The notes under the pieces: generated by a model
The model's input: the letters and a program-made list of their open reading frames with translations, nothing else
Database searches by the model: none
What the model was told of the DNA's origin: nothing
Assembly: GCA_964509695.1 (NCBI GenBank)
Contig: CAZDXN010000001.1
Span: 51,188-115,187, forward strand
Length of the DNA: 64,000 nucleotides
DNA from: an uncultured Pseudomonadales bacterium
GTDB taxonomy: Bacteria > Patescibacteriota > Microgenomatia > UBA1400 > MFAQ01
Direction: 5' to 3'
Made by a program: the position numbers and the translations under genes
Shown: positions 9,279 to 62,300 of the stretch, in pieces
Numbering within the stretch: the stretch's first letter is position 1
How the letters are laid out: every line of letters begins with the position of its first letter

Positions 9279-10373
9279 ATGGCCAAATTACCACTGGTTT
9301 CGATCATCATCGTCGACTACAAGAAAGATAATCCCTATCTTCCCGAATGTCTCGAAGCCATTCAAAGGCAAACCTACAAAAACTTCGAAGTCATTCTCGT
9401 TACCGACCACCCTGTTACTTTGTCATCCTCGCGAAAGCGGGGATCCATTCCCTCGCTCATCAAAAAGTCCTTCGGTCACTACGTCGGCCCGGCCGAGAAA
9501 CGCGACTGGGGAGCGAAGAAGGCTTCCGGGGGAATTCTTGCTTTCATCGATGACGACGCCTATCCTCACCCGGAGTGGCTTGAAAATATAGTTAAAAACT
9601 TCGGAAAAATGTCATTCCCGCGAAAGCGGGAATCTATATCAAATGGATCCCCGATCGAGTCGGGGATGACAGGTGATATCGCTGGGGTGGGAGGACCGGG
9701 AGTAACCCCACCGAATGTTTCATGGACGGAGGAGGCTTCTGGCTGGATGTCAGCTTCACCCTTGGGGGCGGGGGTCAACACTTATCGATTTTTCCCCAAT
9801 TCTCGGAAATTTGTTGATGATTATCCCTCTATGAATCTTGCCATTCGCCGGAGCGATTTTTTGGCTGTGGGAGGCTACGATAGTAACTACTGGCCCGGAG
9901 AGGACACCATGCTTTGCCTCGACCTAACCAGCAAACTAAAGAAGAAAATTATTTATGATCCCAATGTCTTGGTCTATCACCATCGTCGTCCACTTTGGAA
10001 ACCTCATTTGAGGCAGAATGGCAGTTTTGGTCTGCATCGCGGCTTCTTCGCCCGCGTTCTCCCCCAAACCTCTTTCCGTCCTATTTACCTCGGGCCATCT
10101 TTCATGCTCCTCGGCCTTTGCTATCTAATTATTTATCAATTTTTACCAATTCATAATTCCTCATTCTTAATTCTAAATTCAATATCCTACATGGGCTGGT
10201 TTCTCTTCTCCGGCTACCTCCTTGCCCTGCTAGCCAATTCTATCTGGGTCTATCAAAAATCAAAAAGCGGTTTCCAGGGGATTCTTGCCTTTATTGTTGT
10301 CTTCATCACTCACCTCTGGTACGGCGCCCGCTTCCTTCAGGGCTTCTTCCTCACCAAGAATCTATCTCGCTAA
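9279..10373 (+). CDS. GT2 family glycosyltransferase (membrane-anchored) carrying three in-frame palindromic element insertions
   Basis: VSIIIVDYKKDNPYLPECLEAIQRQ and ILAFIDDDAYP motifs. The C-terminus has TM helices. Three short palindromic elements are embedded in-frame (see repeat features). Confidence 0.65.
   Translation: MAKLPLVSIIIVDYKKDNPYLPECLEAIQRQTYKNFEVILVTDHPVTLSSSRKRGSIPSLIKKSFGHYVGPAEKRDWGAKKASGGILAFIDDDAYPHPEWLENIVKNFGKMSFPRKRESISNGSPIESGMTGDIAGVGGPGVTPPNVSWTEEASGWMSASPLGAGVNTYRFFPNSRKFVDDYPSMNLAIRRSDFLAVGGYDSNYWPGEDTMLCLDLTSKLKKKIIYDPNVLVYHHRRPLWKPHLRQNGSFGLHRGFFARVLPQTSFRPIYLGPSFMLLGLCYLIIYQFLPIHNSSFLILNSISYMGWFLFSGYLLALLANSIWVYQKSKSGFQGILAFIVVFITHLWYGARFLQGFFLTKNLSR
9421..9450. 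repeat. Short GC-rich palindromic element inserted in CDS (tgtcatcctcgcgaaagcggggatcc...)
   Basis: Imperfect hairpin TCATCCTCGCG-AAA-GCGGGGAT. It belongs to the same family as the elements at 9610, 9645 and 13261. Confidence 0.6.
9610..9636. repeat. Short GC-rich palindromic element (tgtcattcccgcgaaagcgggaatcta), perfect hairpin
   Basis: ATTCCCGC-GAAA-GCGGGAAT is a perfect 8-bp stem with a 4-nt loop. It is translated in-frame as SFPRKRES. Confidence 0.7.
9645..9671. repeat. Short GC-rich palindromic element in inverted orientation (ggatccccgatcgagtcggggatgaca)
   Basis: Its reverse complement begins TGTCATCCCCGAC..., matching the TGTCATYCC family. It lies 9 nt after the previous element. Confidence 0.6.
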
Positions 10374-10378
10374 TTTCT

Positions 10379-11497
10379 CTATGCCACAAAATATCCTTGG
10401 ATAAAAAACATCAAGAGGATTACGTGTAGGATCGAGAAGATGCCGGCAATGATGACCTTAAGATACAGGTTGTTTATTTCGGAGAGGACAAGGTAGAGCG
10501 TAAGTATTGGCAATACGAAGCGGGGGATCGACAGCAATGTCCCGGTAACGGTAGGAAAAATAAGCATCGCCAATCCGAAAAGGTTGAGTCCCAACCGATC
10601 CGGTAGGTTTCCCGCAGCCCTTTTCTTAATAATCTTATTAAGATCATAAAGAAGAATTAAAAAGGCAAATATAAAAATGCTAAATTCCACAACGGCGATA
10701 AAGTAGGTGTAGTTGAGATCGGCGGTTAGAAATATCTTCAAGTAGCGGTACAAAACCTGAGGCAAGAGGATTATTTTGGTAGTGCGTCCAGCCCCGAACT
10801 GTGGTTGGACATGAAAAAACTTCAGCCCATCCCCCGTAGTAAACCATAGATATCCAGCATAGCTGGCAAATCCCAATATGGGAGCCAGTAGTAGGGATAG
10901 TCGACGACGAGCGCTGGAAAGTAATAGGGGAATCACCAAAAAGATACCAACTACTCGTGTTATTCCAGAAAGGTAGGCAAAAAAAGCAGCAGCCAAAAAA
11001 TTACCCTTCTTATTAAATAAAAGGCAAAGTAGGACCAAGACGATGAACAGGCTTTCGCTATAAGCAGATTGTAAAAAAAACGATGTCGGGAAGGTTAGTA
11101 AAAAAATAATGAACCACTTGGCGTTCTTGCTCAATCCAGTCAATGAAAGATATCTGGGGAGAATCAGCAGACTGGCAATTAGCGATATCCAAGCGATCGA
11201 CAACGCTACTAAGGGGAAAATCAGACCTGACACAGAAGCCAGCGAACGAATCAGAATTGGATACAGTGGGAAAAACGCCACCTCGTTCCTCTCATATCCA
11301 GAGAGAGCGATATTGAGGTAATGAAGTCCGTCAAATCCAGCAAATCGCTTTACAAAATCTGGAAGACGAAAAGAATCTAGTAAGTCCGGAAAAGAAAAAT
11401 AACCCAGATAAGGCACAATTTTTGTAGCTAGAAAACTGACAACAAAATTAAGAAAAAGAGAAATCAAACCGAAATACAAAATCTGACGGGCCCGCAT
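10379..11497 (-). CDS. Polytopic membrane protein, GT-C-like (PIG-V/mannosyltransferase-like motif)
   Basis: About 10 predicted TM helices. The DGLHYLNIALSGYERNEVAFFPLYP motif resembles GT-C mannosyltransferase loop motifs. Confidence 0.45.
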   Translation of the reverse strand: MRARQILYFGLISLFLNFVVSFLATKIVPYLGYFSFPDLLDSFRLPDFVKRFAGFDGLHYLNIALSGYERNEVAFFPLYPILIRSLASVSGLIFPLVALSIAWISLIASLLILPRYLSLTGLSKNAKWFIIFLLTFPTSFFLQSAYSESLFIVLVLLCLLFNKKGNFLAAAFFAYLSGITRVVGIFLVIPLLLSSARRRLSLLLAPILGFASYAGYLWFTTGDGLKFFHVQPQFGAGRTTKIILLPQVLYRYLKIFLTADLNYTYFIAVVEFSIFIFAFLILLYDLNKIIKKRAAGNLPDRLGLNLFGLAMLIFPTVTGTLLSIPRFVLPILTLYLVLSEINNLYLKVIIAGIFSILHVILLMFFIQGYFVA

Positions 11498-11512
11498 TTT
11501 TCTATTTTACCC

Positions 11513-13051
11513 TCACGAGACTTCCTTACGCGCCATTGTCAGGTTGTATACGTGCTGTCTCACCCGCCTCATGGCGCGGAAGCCATAGGTGAATAGAAAT
11601 TGCCAGTCTCGGATTCGTCCGCTTCCCAAGAACTGGATTTGTCGCCATAGAAATTTTGGTGAGAAAGCGATGCCATACATCTTTCTGATCGCTTCGTAAT
11701 ACCTCTCATGAGGAATCGGTGTCTTTACAATCAATTTACTCATATCGTGATCGTTGTAATCACTTGTTAGAAGGACACCCTTTTCAAGACACTCGACATG
11801 ATATGGCGTGTAGTCCAAGGGCGTGCACAAGGTGACTTGGAGAGTCCGAGCTAGTCCCGAGTTCATCAGGTACCTGACGTACTCCACCGTTTGGTCCAGC
11901 ATCTTTTGCGTTTCCCAGTAGTACCCCACCATCATCGTCAGGTGAGGGTGAAGCCCGTACTTGGTCATCCAGTAGAGACAACGTTCAATATATTTTCTCT
12001 GATAGCCCTTATTTATCCGTCGGAGGGTTTCGTCACTACCCGACTCCAGTCCGATCAGGACGAAGCGGAAATTTGCTTTAGCCATTAGCTTAATTGTCTC
12101 CTCATCCAGATATTCGAAACGGGTATTAATCCCAAAATAACACCCCTTCTTGTGTAGGCCTCGGTCAATAATTCCTTGAGCGAACTCCCTCGCATCTGTT
12201 CCCCGGTACCAGACTCCGGAATCGTCAAAGATTTCCTTGACGTGATATTTGTTGATGAGCATCTCGTATTCGTCCAGACTGTTCTCCACCTTCATTTTGG
12301 TGAAGGTTAGGTCTGGTCCGTTGTAGCGGCAGAAGGTACACTTGCCGAACATACAGTCGCGGATGACACTGGTAGCATAAGTGCCGGGAGTTTGGAGGTA
12401 GTTTCCGTTTTCGAAAGCGTAATTCTTCCACCCGACCAGATCACGGTCGATGATCGGGGAGTTATTCACCGGTTCGACCCGTCGAAATTCTCCGGTGTCT
12501 CGATACTCCTTGTTCTTTACTCTGATTGTCAACCCTTCGATGTCACAACTCTTCCGCCAGTCGGTGTGGTCCCGAACAAAAGGCAACAGTTTTGCCAAGA
12601 CAAAATCCACATGATTACTTTTGAGAACAATATCGGTTCTCGAATTATCCAAGGTCTCCTCCGGCTTTCTCATCGAGTGATAACCGGTCATGATAAAGAT
12701 CGTCTTGGGCAAAACATTTTTTAGGTCGTTCGTCAGTTTCCAATAAAACTTCATCACCGGCGTAGTACTTTCAAAGACAACCACATCGGGTCTCCATTTC
12801 ACCAAGTCAGTTGACCACTTCTCAAATGTTTTTAGTTGGGCATTGCCGTCATCCCAACGGACTTTAAACTTGAGCTGTTTCAGCCAAGTCGCCGCTTGGG
12901 CGTAGGTCACTGGTAGTAGGTAAGTTGGCGTTTTGAAATACTGGACGTTTCGGTTCTGGGAGACCATCGCCTTCTGGCCTTTGGAGTTCACAATCGGCGG
13001 ATACGATATCGCCACCCTCAGCGTCCTATTACTTGTTGTTGTTCTTCTCAT
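11513..13051 (-). CDS. B12-binding radical SAM protein (variant Cx4Cx2C cluster)
   Basis: An N-terminal Rossmann-like B12-binding region is followed by a RDCMFGKCTFCRY radical SAM cysteine motif. Its sequence is distinct from the other five B12-rSAM paralogs. Confidence 0.7.
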   Translation of the reverse strand: MRRTTTSNRTLRVAISYPPIVNSKGQKAMVSQNRNVQYFKTPTYLLPVTYAQAATWLKQLKFKVRWDDGNAQLKTFEKWSTDLVKWRPDVVVFESTTPVMKFYWKLTNDLKNVLPKTIFIMTGYHSMRKPEETLDNSRTDIVLKSNHVDFVLAKLLPFVRDHTDWRKSCDIEGLTIRVKNKEYRDTGEFRRVEPVNNSPIIDRDLVGWKNYAFENGNYLQTPGTYATSVIRDCMFGKCTFCRYNGPDLTFTKMKVENSLDEYEMLINKYHVKEIFDDSGVWYRGTDAREFAQGIIDRGLHKKGCYFGINTRFEYLDEETIKLMAKANFRFVLIGLESGSDETLRRINKGYQRKYIERCLYWMTKYGLHPHLTMMVGYYWETQKMLDQTVEYVRYLMNSGLARTLQVTLCTPLDYTPYHVECLEKGVLLTSDYNDHDMSKLIVKTPIPHERYYEAIRKMYGIAFSPKFLWRQIQFLGSGRIRDWQFLFTYGFRAMRRVRQHVYNLTMARKEVS

Positions 13052-13095
13052 TTTTATTGTTTTGATTTTTTGAGTTTTCTCAGTTTTGAGTTTTT

Positions 13096-13785
13096 TTAAA
13101 AGAATACCTCCGTAATAATATTTGTCCCATTTACGCCTTGGCCTCTCAGTATGTCATATACCTCATTGATCATGTCACTATTGCCGCAAAGATAGCAAAC
13201 CGTCTTCAGGTCCACAGGATGCTTTCGTAGGTACTCTGTCACCCTCCCGAAATAAACATTGTCATTCCGAGCGGAACGAAGTGAAGTCGAGGAATCTCTT
13301 GAAATACAAACAATATATTTTCCTTCCGGATAATCCTTCCTATCATATTGCTCATTCACATAACTCACTCCATGCAAAACCGTGTAGTCCAGTTTGGGGT
13401 AGGAGAGCGCAAACGAGTGAAATGGGGCAATCCCGGTGCCGGTCCCGATAAATAAATATTTGTTCTTAGAATCCTCTGAATTGGCAATGGTGAACGATCC
13501 ATAGGCTCCGTCAATGGTAACTTCGTCACCGATCTCTAGTTTTTGTAGGATTGGTGACAATGACCCCCCCTTAACAGCCTTAATCAAAAACTCTAGATAT
13601 TTTTCATCTCTTCCGGAATAGGTTGAGTACTCGCGGTTGATTGCTTCCTTCGGTAGTCCAAGGTTCACACACTGCCCCGGAATAAATTCAAAACCCCTTC
13701 TCTCCACTCGAATCACAAAAGTCGAATCTGTCAAATGCCTAACCTTTAGTACTTTTACCATCGTAATCTTATTCATTATGGACAA
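13096..13785 (-). CDS. FNR-like FAD/NAD(P)-binding oxidoreductase (ferredoxin reductase-type) with in-frame palindromic insertion
   Basis: REYSTYS (RxYS FAD motif) and IGTGTGIAPF (NAD-binding) motifs. The true start is probably the ATG at 13776 (MNKITMVKV). Residues RDSSTSLRSARNDN are encoded by a palindromic element. Confidence 0.65.
   Translation of the reverse strand: MSIMNKITMVKVLKVRHLTDSTFVIRVERRGFEFIPGQCVNLGLPKEAINREYSTYSGRDEKYLEFLIKAVKGGSLSPILQKLEIGDEVTIDGAYGSFTIANSEDSKNKYLFIGTGTGIAPFHSFALSYPKLDYTVLHGVSYVNEQYDRKDYPEGKYIVCISRDSSTSLRSARNDNVYFGRVTEYLRKHPVDLKTVCYLCGNSDMINEVYDILRGQGVNGTNIITEVFF
13261..13296. repeat. Short palindromic element (gtcattccgagcggaacgaagtgaagtcgaggaatc) inside the FNR-like CDS
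   Basis: Same TGTCATTCC...GGAATC family as the elements in the 9279 gene. It is inserted in-frame. Confidence 0.6.
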
Positions 13786-15217: not shown

Positions 15218-15856
15218 ATGAACAAAATCAACTACCTATCAAAGTTAAATTCAGCTAGTTTTTTCACAACAAATACCCTAAGAAGCACTGTGGGTGGAAA
15301 CGATGACGCCTTTAACGCCAATGTGGCTCGGTGGATGAAAAACGGTAGTTTGATTCAATTAAAAAAAGGCGTTTTTGTTACCAAGGAATATTATCAGCTT
15401 TGCACCGACAAACAAATTTATAATGAATTTATAGCCAATATACTCAAAAGACCATCATATCTAAGTGGGGAATATGTTCTGCAGAAATATGGCATGTTAT
15501 CCGAATCGGTTTTCTCGATCACCTCTGTCACTCGAAAGAAGACAAGGAATTACAGTAACAAATTAGGAGTGTTTATATATTCAAATATCAAAGAGAAACT
15601 ATTTACTGGCTTTGACATAGCAACCAGGTCGGGATTTGAGATAAAAGAAGCAACAAAGACAAAGGCGTTGTTTGATTATTTATATTATAGATTGTTAAGG
15701 GTGACAGAAATCAACCAAGAAATTATTGATTCTTTTAGGCTAAATTTAGGCGATTTAACCTCCAGTGATTACCAAGAATTAGAGTACTTTATTGATCTTT
15801 CAGACATCCAAAAATTTGTTAATTTAACACGTTATTTAAAAGAGACCTCAAAATGA
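15218..15856 (+). CDS. abiEi: AbiEi-like antitoxin / transcriptional regulator (type IV TA)
   Basis: It sits immediately upstream of, and overlaps, an AbiEii-type nucleotidyltransferase. The N-terminal ...NGSLIQLKKGVFV resembles the AbiEi wHTH pattern. Confidence 0.5.
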   Translation: MNKINYLSKLNSASFFTTNTLRSTVGGNDDAFNANVARWMKNGSLIQLKKGVFVTKEYYQLCTDKQIYNEFIANILKRPSYLSGEYVLQKYGMLSESVFSITSVTRKKTRNYSNKLGVFIYSNIKEKLFTGFDIATRSGFEIKEATKTKALFDYLYYRLLRVTEINQEIIDSFRLNLGDLTSSDYQELEYFIDLSDIQKFVNLTRYLKETSK

Positions 15857-16698
15857 TTATTGAAGAAATGAAATCATTGATTAATAAGCCCGGTGTACAG
15901 AATAAGTCGAGCTTGTATATTAGAAGCCTGCTAAAAGAGTTTTTGCAAATTTATGTACTCAATCATATTTATTTAAATCCAAAATACAACAAAGTGTTTG
16001 TGTTTACTGGGGGGACCTGTTTACGGCATTGTTTTGGTCTAAATAGGTTATCTGAGGATTTAGATTTTGATCTAAGAGTACCAATTGATGTGGCAGAATT
16101 AAAAAATTCCCTTGAGACTTATTTTAAAACTGAATTTATGTATGAGAGTCTGTCGGCCTCTATGTCACAAGGTGGAAAACAGCTGTTACTTAAATTTCCA
16201 GTGTTAAAAGGTTTGGGCCTAGCGACCCAATCTGAAAGTGATTTGTTGTATGTCAAGATAGATCTATCGCCCATGGCTTCCGAAAAATATGGTGAGAACA
16301 CGACCTTAAAAAATATCAACAACTTTAATTATTTGGTAACCCATTATGATTTGCCGTCGTTGATGGCTGGAAAAATTGTTACTATTTTGACCAGACAGCG
16401 ATTTTTGGGAAAAGCGAATATTAAAGTAATTAAAGGTCGGGACTATTTTGATTTACTGTGGTTTTTAGAGAAAAATGTTTTTCCAAATTTAGACAGGGTC
16501 AATGATTTGTTAAAAAGTTCTTATTCAATGTTGAAGCTACTAGTTTTGTTAGATGAGAAGGTAAAAATGGCAACTACAGTTAGCAAACAGTATCTTAAGC
16601 AAGATTTGATGCCTTTTATTGATAACCCCGTGCTTCTGGATGGGTATATTGAGAATTTCGAGAAGAACTATAACCAGGCCAAAACGTATCTAAAGTGA
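15853..16698 (+). CDS. abiEii: AbiEii/AbiGii-family nucleotidyltransferase toxin (DUF1814)
   Basis: FTGGTCLRHCFGLNRLSEDLDFD is the hallmark NTase motif of AbiEii. Confidence 0.75.
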   Translation: MIIEEMKSLINKPGVQNKSSLYIRSLLKEFLQIYVLNHIYLNPKYNKVFVFTGGTCLRHCFGLNRLSEDLDFDLRVPIDVAELKNSLETYFKTEFMYESLSASMSQGGKQLLLKFPVLKGLGLATQSESDLLYVKIDLSPMASEKYGENTTLKNINNFNYLVTHYDLPSLMAGKIVTILTRQRFLGKANIKVIKGRDYFDLLWFLEKNVFPNLDRVNDLLKSSYSMLKLLVLLDEKVKMATTVSKQYLKQDLMPFIDNPVLLDGYIENFEKNYNQAKTYLK

Positions 16699-60102: not shown

Positions 60103-60411
60103 ATGTACACCATTATTGTCGAGAAAAAGGTGGAGCGATTTATTAAAAGTCTGCAGAAAAGTGCCCAGGGTAAGGTCGTGCGTCTTAAAAAATTAATGGT
60201 CGAATATGGAGGTGATTTGGGGATGCCTCATTCAAAAATATTATCCAGAAGGCTTTATGAACTAAGGGTCCGCGGAAAACAGGAAATCAGAATCTTCTAT
60301 ACATCGGTAGACCACCGAGTCATCTTGTTTCACGGGTTTATCAAGAAGACGTATCGAACCCTCAAAAAGGAGTTGGAACTCGCTCACAAAATTCTTAAAG
60401 CAATAGTATAA
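60103..60411 (+). CDS. RelE/HigB-like (Gp49 family) toxin
   Basis: About 100 aa. It lies upstream of an HTH antitoxin in HigBA gene order. The ...RVILFHGFIKKT motif is typical of Gp49/HigB-like proteins. Confidence 0.55.
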   Translation: MYTIIVEKKVERFIKSLQKSAQGKVVRLKKLMVEYGGDLGMPHSKILSRRLYELRVRGKQEIRIFYTSVDHRVILFHGFIKKTYRTLKKELELAHKILKAIV

Positions 60412-61742: not shown

Positions 61743-61816
61743 ACTCTTTTGGTTACAGTTTACACTTAACTATAAACTATGAATTAGGATATTATTGATT
61801 GTCGTATAATACACTC

Positions 61817-62077
61817 ATGGTAAACAAAAAAGGAAATATAAAAAGAAAGAAAATTCTCCAGTATTATGCCGTCTTTCAAGAGGAAGATGACGGTGGTTTT
61901 TCTGTTTGGGTGCCATCACTACCAGGTTGTTGTTCCCAAGGGGACACTCTGGAGGGGGCTACAAACAACATTCGTGAGGCAATCGAACTTTATCTAGAAG
62001 AAACTCCTAACAAAAAGTATCCCAGTGAAGTTCGCCAGAAACAGTTTCTTGTCCCCATCAGGGTATCTTATGCCTAA
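61817..62077 (+). CDS. hicB: HicB-family antitoxin
   Basis: YYAVFQEEDDGGFSVWVPSLPGCCSQGDTLEGA is the HicB N-terminal signature. The start was set at the internal ATG. Confidence 0.7.
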   Translation: MVNKKGNIKRKKILQYYAVFQEEDDGGFSVWVPSLPGCCSQGDTLEGATNNIREAIELYLEETPNKKYPSEVRQKQFLVPIRVSYA

Positions 62078-62300
62078 ATTGCCTCAAATCTCCGCAAATC
62101 AACTTCTTCGAGCACTTCAGAAGATTGGTTTCAGGACAGTCTCACAAAAGGGGAGCCATATTAAATTACACAGAACAATTAACAAGCGCATTCAGACGAT
62201 AATTGTTCCCAACCACAAATCAATCCGCAAGGGAACGCTCAAGAATGGAATTCTTAACCAGATTCCTATTTCGGTCAATGAGTTTCTCAAGCTTCTCTAG
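62070..62300 (+). CDS. hicA: HicA-family mRNA interferase toxin
   Basis: MPKLPQISANQLLRALQKIGFRTVSQKGSHIKL is the HicA/YcfA signature. It overlaps the hicB stop (ATGCCTAA). Confidence 0.7.
   Translation: MPKLPQISANQLLRALQKIGFRTVSQKGSHIKLHRTINKRIQTIIVPNHKSIRKGTLKNGILNQIPISVNEFLKLL

Follow-up and report, generated by a model that had tools for sequence, protein, structure and literature searches.

The question raised by this locus is how two conserved protein genes came to carry short palindromic DNA elements within their reading frames, and what those elements are. Both genes lie in a 64-kb stretch of contig CAZDXN010000001.1 (the window): a family-2 glycosyltransferase (GT2) gene with a C-terminal membrane region at 9279-10373 on the plus strand (PF00535, 1.4e-15), and a gene for a ferredoxin-NADP-reductase-like (FNR-like) oxidoreductase at 13096-13785 on the minus strand (FAD_binding_6 and NAD_binding_1). 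An earlier note on this DNA had reported three in-frame elements in the GT2 gene and a fourth in the FNR-like gene; all four are present, and the frame is open through three elements in the former gene and through one in the latter. The answer that we favor, and consider likely, is that they are CGTC/TGTC-tagged repetitive extragenic palindrome (REP) hairpins of the kind described as Neisseria Transformation Sequence (NTS) and Ssn-related motif (SRM), that is, single-stranded DNA (ssDNA) elements of the Ssn type, which multiplied as non-autonomous units and were tolerated in protein loops.

Copy 1 (TGTCATCCTCGCGAAAGCGGGGATCCAT; 9421-9448, plus strand) consists of a TGTC tag, a stem (ATCCTCGC/GCGGGGAT) with one T.G wobble, a GAAA loop and an ATC tail; it occupies the position referred to here as GT2 site 1 and encodes SSSRKRGSI. 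Copy 2 (TGTCATTCCCGCGAAAGCGGGAATCTAT; 9610-9637, plus strand) encodes SFPRKRESI and has the perfect 8-bp stem (ATTCCCGC/GCGGGAAT) and GAAA loop that had already been noticed. Copy 3 (TGTCATCCCCGACTCGATCGGGGATCCAT; 9643-9671, minus strand) is inverted, with a stem of ATCCCCGA/TCGGGGAT and a 5-nt loop, and reads GSPIESGMT on the gene strand. Together, copies 2 and 3 form a tags-outward (head-to-head, HH) heterodimer at 9610-9671 (TGTCAT...ATGACA), with their GTC...ATC cores 11 nt apart. Copy 4 (TGTCATTCCGAGCGGAACGAAGTGAAGTCGAGGAATCTC; 13260-13298, plus strand) lies antisense to the FNR-like gene, encodes DSSTSLRSARND and is of a GA type (type B below; ATTCC-GA-GC ... TC-GA-GGAAT) with a 10-nt loop expansion. 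The peptides quoted in the earlier note (SSSRKRGSIPS, SFPRKRESI and GSPIESGMTG) are correct by translation, and the string that it gave for copy 1 as running to 9450 ends at 9446. The pattern GTCATYCC-N8-30-GGRAT has three matches in the window, compared with 0.28 expected, and none of 100 shuffles reached three; a looser hairpin-aware scan of the 64-kb window gave no clear copy beyond the four.

A full-text literature search for GTCATTCC led to a study (Chenal 2025, PMC11893778), carried out on RefSeq reference genomes and reporting mainly Pseudomonadati, in which the NTS is given as CGTCATTCCCGCGMAVGCGGGAATCYRG, a sequence that includes the dRS3 repeat ATTCCC-N8-GGGAAT, and the SRM as the degenerate pattern HGTCWYN(0-2)YYVSBRHN(0-5)WNVSBRGN(0-2)RNCYNB. 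Copy 2 differs from the NTS consensus only in its two outermost bases (26 of 28 positions identical), and the published SRM pattern matches exactly the three GT2 copies in the window (0.13 expected); the FNR copy, with its expanded loop, falls outside the pattern. According to the same study (PMC11893778), SsnA is a 94-aa single-domain GIY-YIG protein (cd10448) whose binding to the hairpin requires ssDNA and is limited to the tagged strand, and which cuts a few nt upstream; binding depends critically on the C that follows the palindrome, cutting on the three bases in front of that C, and ssn genes are often bracketed by hairpins. The system makes NTS-bearing DNA less effective in the transformation of N. 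meningitidis (PMC11893778).

The older description of CGTC-tagged REPs (Di Nocera 2013, PMC3733652) gives stems of 8-9 bp, loops of 4-5 nt, a 3-bp tail and an unpaired CGTC at one end, with HH dimers predominant, intragenic units occurring and no associated transposase, and lists such elements in five phyla. There, the Neisseria CGTC-1 family is identified with dRS3; in R. conorii, CGTC-1 corresponds to RPE-6 and CGTC-4 to RPE-4, both of them families of Rickettsia palindromic elements (RPE), whose sequences end in CGTC (PMC3733652). By the 26 of 28 match to the NTS, the SRM pattern, the stem and loop, the conserved C and the tags-outward dimer, the four elements belong to the CGTC/TGTC-tagged REP superfamily that includes dRS3/NTS and SRM; at the level of sequence they are thus of a known kind and no new type of element.

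That the four elements are true insertions rather than ancestral sequence follows from the empty sites in syntenic orthologs. Alignments of 30 ortholog proteins each for GT2 and FNR, a comparison that the earlier note had proposed, showed that the element positions are gapped in many sequences and that the peptides are not in all relatives. At the DNA level in syntenic loci (numbered L; proteins, P), GT2 site 1 represents a net gain of 21 nt, shared by the window and L002 (L003 and L324 have the empty site), and the 9610-9671 doublet a net gain of 63 nt found in the window alone (L002 and L003 empty, 29 orthologs without it). The FNR site is empty in L324, and L323 holds at the same codon position a canonical 26-nt element (read on the other strand, CGTCATTCCGAGCGAAGTCGAGGAATC), to which the window element corresponds with 10 extra loop nt. 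Other orthologs carry different short peptides at these positions (SSSRKRGSI, SFPTRSGIH, CHSDRSGGI, SFRAKSRNL and several ending in GMT or ARND). A target-site duplication was sought at the window insertions and none was found, the flanks being diverged and the exact boundaries not definable; the empty site TGCCGTAC is similar to the element's TGTCATCC.

The inserted peptides are predicted to sit in permissive protein loops, since in an AlphaFold model of GT2 the 21-residue doublet insert (residues 111-130) is coiled with a predicted local distance difference test (pLDDT) score below 50, and site 1 (residues 51-60) is a coil between two strands with a pLDDT of about 58. The FNR loop, too, seems to be a tolerant position and is hypervariable for more than one reason: in the L003 ortholog (12650-12775) it holds unrelated low-complexity filler, as it does in proteins P0126, P0130 and P0133. 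Examples of such filler are ERQKTQELKESRTQN, from CTCAAGAA-like repeats, and KTLKLETEKNQNNGKLK. Such filler, and the fact that the same loops vary in all orthologs, could be taken to mean that the segments are ancestral protein sequence or convergent low-complexity loops in which the DNA palindromy is incidental. We give this almost no credence: it is already contradicted by the outgroup and the many ingroup orthologs with empty sites, DNA elements of identical sequence are also found between genes, at loci with no relation to these, and across organisms ranging from 34% to 69% GC, and only about 0.1-0.3 copies per window would be expected by chance.

In a neighbour-joining tree of GT2 proteins built with the insert columns left out, the outgroups are empty and the site-1 states are interspersed: NTS-type filled P0002 pairs with empty P0004, empty P0010 is sister to GA-type P0011, and P0006 (SFPTRSGIH) is sister to P0008 (CHSDRSGGI). 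Repeated gain, loss or replacement at one codon position is therefore needed. Filled and empty alleles also occur within one metagenomic assembly, GCA_040960375.1, the source of L002, L323 and L324: L002 and L323 carry an insertion at GT2 site 1 and at the FNR site, respectively, and L324 is empty at both. This assembly mixes at least two related strains, since its separate contigs carry related but distinct versions of the same gene cluster. Recombination between strains (L002 vs L324) is thus possible, as would be expected if the copies were fossils of the same family, decaying without an active partner nuclease, with the pattern of filled and empty sites produced by homologous recombination or horizontal exchange. 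Degenerate copies, namely L117 site 1 with a broken pair and the FNR copy with its 10-nt loop expansion, agree with such decay. We nevertheless judge this account unlikely, as different subtypes at the same codon position in sister lineages call for new arrivals and not decay alone, and the doublet, in which both hairpins are perfect, is unique to this genome among those sampled.

The host is, as judged from sequence, a Patescibacteria (Microgenomates-like) bacterium; its nearest named GT2 relatives are metagenome-assembled genomes (MAGs) of Candidatus Collierbacteria, and its best match among named-genome contigs is 64% identical. Many MAGs (TPA_asm; L113, L114, L117, L118 and others) whose GT2 loci are clearly nearest to those of Collierbacteria/Microgenomates are titled 'uncultured Pseudomonadales' or 'Gammaproteobacteria', which look like placeholder or mistaken taxonomic labels. 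Relatives were sampled as 80 loci around GT2 orthologs in named genomes. The published SRM regular expression under-detects variants of the Candidate Phyla Radiation (CPR), giving 14 matches of which several were spurious, and copies were therefore scanned for by the tag plus a 5-bp closing stem, with Markov-shuffled controls. CPR-like loci (543 kb) held 46 copies with 1.4 expected by chance, so that many further copies exist in relatives, for which the earlier note had proposed a pattern search; non-CPR loci (725 kb) held six with 4.2 expected. The base before the invariant GTC is T in all four window copies and, among 45 copies in relatives, C in 25, T in 19 and A in one. Thirty of 45 credible copies lie within stop-free open reading frames (ORFs) of at least 80 codons, an upper bound under the longest-ORF rule used, and intragenic copies were directly verified in GT2 and FNR orthologs.

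Three subtypes were distinguished in relatives. Type A comprises NTS-like perfect stems. Type B (ATYCC-GA-SC...GS-GA-GGRAT) has tandem G.A mismatches and includes the window FNR copy. Type C (GTCATTGCGAG...variable inner hairpin...GCAATC) recurs frequently in Collierbacteria GT2 genes, in the part that encodes the C-terminal membrane region, and the statistics on 45 copies include the GTCATTGCGA...GCAATC subtype. Type C elements lie in frame between predicted transmembrane helices (L117:10800-10980, L119:10804-10994, L120:1061-1092 and L121:10798-10831), encode peptides of the form VIARSE..QS or VIARSE..WQS, and have a stem that is not simple Watson-Crick. Near-identical variants of copy 3 were found at L125:11077 and L116:6245, the wobble variant of copy 1 in at least 120 metagenomic stretches (contigs of 34-69% GC), and the core 24-mer of copy 2, which is the exact NTS 24-mer, without mismatch in 109 viral or prophage stretches.

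Folding of each copy, also proposed in the earlier note, gave a clear result for the three GT2 copies, which form 8-bp stems with loops of 4-5 nt (4, 4 and 5) at -13 to -16 kcal/mol as RNA, and fold at -6.4 to -9.0 kcal/mol as ssDNA (z -2.7 to -4.8); in each, the palindrome is followed by C. The FNR copy folded no better than shuffled sequence as either RNA or ssDNA. It had been listed as a related element; it is not a plain hairpin and is of a different subtype with tandem G.A mismatches, and its 10-nt loop expansion is the reason that it lacks a clean fold and lies outside the published patterns. Across 14 type-A copies, 98% of cells were paired, compared with 87% in shuffled sets and at most 61% when the register was slid; both sides had changed in three of seven pairs, and none of 500 shuffles reached the score. 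The type-A covariation is real, and the retention of stem pairing through compensatory changes again speaks against decaying relics.

The copies are also strongly oriented: across the sampled syntenic loci, 40 of 45 are on the locus plus strand and five opposite (binomial p of about 8e-8), and the favored strand is the C-rich strand in most copy-bearing loci. All five copies within minus-strand genes keep the plus orientation, so orientation tracks the DNA strand and not gene sense. This bias fits a strand-specific ssDNA process and is only indirectly consistent with cutting of the tagged strand by Ssn. It also bears on the proposal that the elements are kept for a function in RNA, as mRNA hairpins that pause translation between domains, protect against RNase or attenuate transcription. 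Sense orientation in 23 of 30 intragenic copies and good folding as RNA are in line with this, and many REPs have been proposed to be transcribed and to act as RNA elements (PMC3733652). The five copies in opposite-strand genes are at odds with it, as are the function of orthologs that lack elements, the lack of an interaction between N. meningitidis SsnA and RNA of the same sequence (PMC11893778), and the conservation of an unpaired GTC tag and 3' C, as Ssn recognition needs; Rfam at the gathering threshold returned zero matches over the whole window. An RNA-level role is thus, in our estimation, very improbable.

In the described Ssn systems the hairpins often flank the ssn gene, and two contigs from elsewhere hold this arrangement. 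L027, a viral or prophage match to the 24-mer, carries an ssn-like 97-aa GIY-YIG gene (Pfam 2.6e-15) that is flanked on either side, at a distance of 16-17 nt, by a type-A copy with its tag outward. L259 (40% GC), retrieved in the metagenome scan for the copy 1 wobble variant, carries an Ssn homolog (E 5e-26 to the L027 protein) bracketed by type-B copies (TGTCATTCCGAGCGAAGCCGAGGAATCCC) with tags outward, 1-7 nt from the coding sequence. By these two brackets, both window subtypes are bona fide ssn-bracketing hairpins, and the window doublet at 9610-9671 has the same geometry as the ssn-bracketing pairs, without a gene. Short-spacer tags-outward pairs recur (window 9611/9646, twice in L133, and L143), and the tally of pairs in metagenome loci was 47 HH, nine tail-to-tail (TT) and eight head-to-tail (HT), the corresponding numbers in CPR loci being six, one and four. 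In L133, two tags-outward doublets lie on either side of the FNR ortholog (2660/2712 and 3660/3712). In L259 (1988-2393), a 17-nt direct repeat (ATAATTTGTATAAATTA) in turn encloses the compact hairpin-ssn-hairpin unit of about 354 bp, with one repeat ending 2 nt before the first hairpin and the other starting 21 nt after the second; it may reflect duplication of a target site or, alternatively, of the promoter/start region that belongs to the gene downstream.

Several points weigh against this reading. A gene for Ssn or another GIY-YIG protein was sought, with a GIY-YIG motif regular expression and with phmmer using the L027 Ssn, in six-frame translations of the 64-kb window and of L001-L003, and none was found (E below about 0.5). 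A small GIY-YIG family does exist in Patescibacteria (L142, P0241-P0360), and its genes have no hairpins nearby in 10 loci and L142. The window tag is TGTC in all four copies, not CGTC. Only 2% of NTS are intragenic in N. meningitidis, unlike the situation here, and the activity shown for Ssn is that of a nuclease, not of a transposase (PMC11893778). The calls of copies as lying in ORFs are, moreover, upper bounds, and the related loci behind the strand bias are not fully independent. The first two of these points, an ssn gene not found in the window or in the closest orthologous loci and a small CPR GIY-YIG family without hairpin flanks, also favor the account in which the copies are fossils. 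The L142-like family was considered as the cognate Ssn and rejected, GTCAT hairpins being absent from the 10 sampled loci and L142; the L142 protein is 34% identical to the L027 Ssn.

The L142-like genes (L142:15951-16237) encode proteins of 84-92 aa that are 70-88% identical and occur in many Patescibacteria lineages and one archaeal MAG (5,523 matches). They share a conserved 5' flank of their own (TTCACCCTGTTAAATAATTTTAAATTT) just upstream (L142, L193, L196, L197 and L202) and are wedged among housekeeping genes, for instance between ATP synthase genes (L196) or beside a GT2 gene (L193-L195). The family seems to be a mobile element in its own right, of a homing type and with no relation to the GTCAT hairpins.

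Comparison with the described systems places the window elements as follows. With the NTS/SRM they share near-identical sequence (CGTCATTCCCGCGMAVGCGGGAATCYRG vs TGTCATTCCCGCGAAAGCGGGAATCTAT), the orienting GTC tag, the conserved C after the palindrome, and hairpins that bracket ssn in other contigs (L027 and L259). Copies are clustered around particular genes, as reported for NTS hairpins (PMC11893778). The four window copies cluster within 3.9 kb (9421-13298) of a 64-kb glycosylation and cell-envelope gene cluster, and this clustering near envelope genes parallels that described for the NTS in Neisseria. They differ in the Patescibacteria host, in being mostly intragenic as opposed to the 2% of N. 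meningitidis, in the several stem subtypes within one locus as opposed to the homogeneous Neisseria family (PMC11893778), and in that no ssn gene was found in the window or L001-L003. With CGTC-tagged REPs they share an 8-9-bp stem, a 4-5-nt loop, a short tail, prevalent HH dimers, some intragenic copies and the lack of a linked transposase; here, however, the tag is TGTC in all window copies, the phylum is outside the five of 2013, and types B (tandem G.A mismatches) and C (variable inner hairpin) exceed simple stems.

The earlier note had likened the elements to RPE, which are palindromic repeats located in frame in functional protein genes (Ogata et al. 2000, via PMC3733652), and the likeness proved to be more than analogy: the equation of RPE-6 and RPE-4 with CGTC-1 and CGTC-4 places both in one CGTC-tagged REP superfamily, so that the kinship is, on the authority of Di Nocera 2013 (PMC3733652), partly literal. 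In both cases palindromes are inserted in frame into conserved, intact protein genes. Unlike the Rickettsia hosts, which are obligate intracellular alphaproteobacteria, the present host is a free-living or episymbiotic CPR bacterium. The units here measure 26-39 nt, or 62 nt for the doublet, as against about 100-150 bp for classical RPE-1. GTAG-tagged REPs and the REPIN-RAYT system likewise combine short tagged hairpins, probably mobile as inverted doublets, with recognition of ssDNA hairpins and a bracketed small partner gene; their tag is GTAG and not GTC(AT), and the known partner of the present family is a GIY-YIG nuclease and not an HUH/Y1 transposase. Membership in this group was rejected: a GTAG tag is absent from every copy, the tag being (C/T)GTC followed by AT throughout.

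For the elements as Ssn-type ssDNA hairpins, the following course of events would account for the data. In known systems, as described in the literature, Ssn binds the single-stranded tagged strand at the hairpin and cuts a few nt upstream. In the Patescibacteria lineage, the elements would have multiplied as non-autonomous units, either single or as tags-outward doublets. As the genome is presumably compact, with little intergenic space, the surviving copies would be mostly those that lie in frame in permissive, disordered loops. The extra peptides are most probably by-products, and whatever function there is would be exerted at the DNA level, on ssDNA exposed in replication, transformation or recombination. 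We infer both that Ssn acts on the window copies in this genome and the way in which copies move. Since the elements match the NTS/SRM, the ssDNA target of Ssn nucleases, they may serve the host in some way at the DNA level rather than being purely selfish. The earlier description of them as foreign selfish elements holds to the extent that a palindromic family was inserted and tolerated, while the argument from GC content for foreignness is weak: whole elements have about 56% GC (own count) and the surroundings 44-47%, not the 40% assumed, so the contrast is real and modest.

The core of the element is stop-free in five of six frames, the closed frame being on the reverse strand (GAA TGA), and two spurious ORFs in the GT2 gene are kept open by the copies. 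One, at 9566-9781 on the minus strand, is kept open by copies 2 and 3, reads ...IPDSIGDP..DSRFRGND... and is antisense as had been claimed; the other, at 9347-9553, is kept open by copy 1, reads ...VILAKAGIH... and lies on the plus strand in an alternative frame, not antisense. Small window ORFs matched toxin-antitoxin, methyltransferase and hexapeptide-transferase families in Pfam, and a nuclease was not among the families found. Defence or addiction modules occur in the same glycosylation cluster, namely an AbiEii-family protein with its upstream partner (L001 annotation; 15218-16698), a Gp49-like (DUF891) protein (60103-60411) and a HicB/HicA pair (61799-62300).

In metagenome annotation, the elements create spurious ORFs and odd peptides (SFPRKRES, VIPAKAGI, DSRFRGND and ...GMT) and inflate apparent protein divergence, and recognising them should improve gene calling and alignments for CPR genomes. 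Literature searches on the encoded peptides (RFRGND, VIPAKAGI and others) and on CPR together with hairpins and coding sequences found no prior description; the host phylum, the prevalence of in-frame copies within genes, the repeated use of the same loops by different subtypes, and the strand bias are new here. A further step, which we put forward tentatively and with considerable doubt, is that the hairpins are actively mobile in Patescibacteria by a strand-specific ssDNA route, as REPIN-like non-autonomous units, both single and in tags-outward doublets, that home repeatedly to the same permissive codons. If this is true, the hairpins would be a routine generator of protein-loop insertions in genomes nearly without intergenic space, and Ssn or another partner would have a cut-and-paste or copy activity not yet described. 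The findings add the CPR to the range of a repeat family whose nuclease partner was identified recently, and in this group its copies are mostly intragenic and not intergenic. With the same loops struck by different subtypes, filled and empty alleles in one metagenome and a strand bias of about 8:1, they offer a tractable natural setting in which the spread of CGTC/NTS hairpins can be studied.

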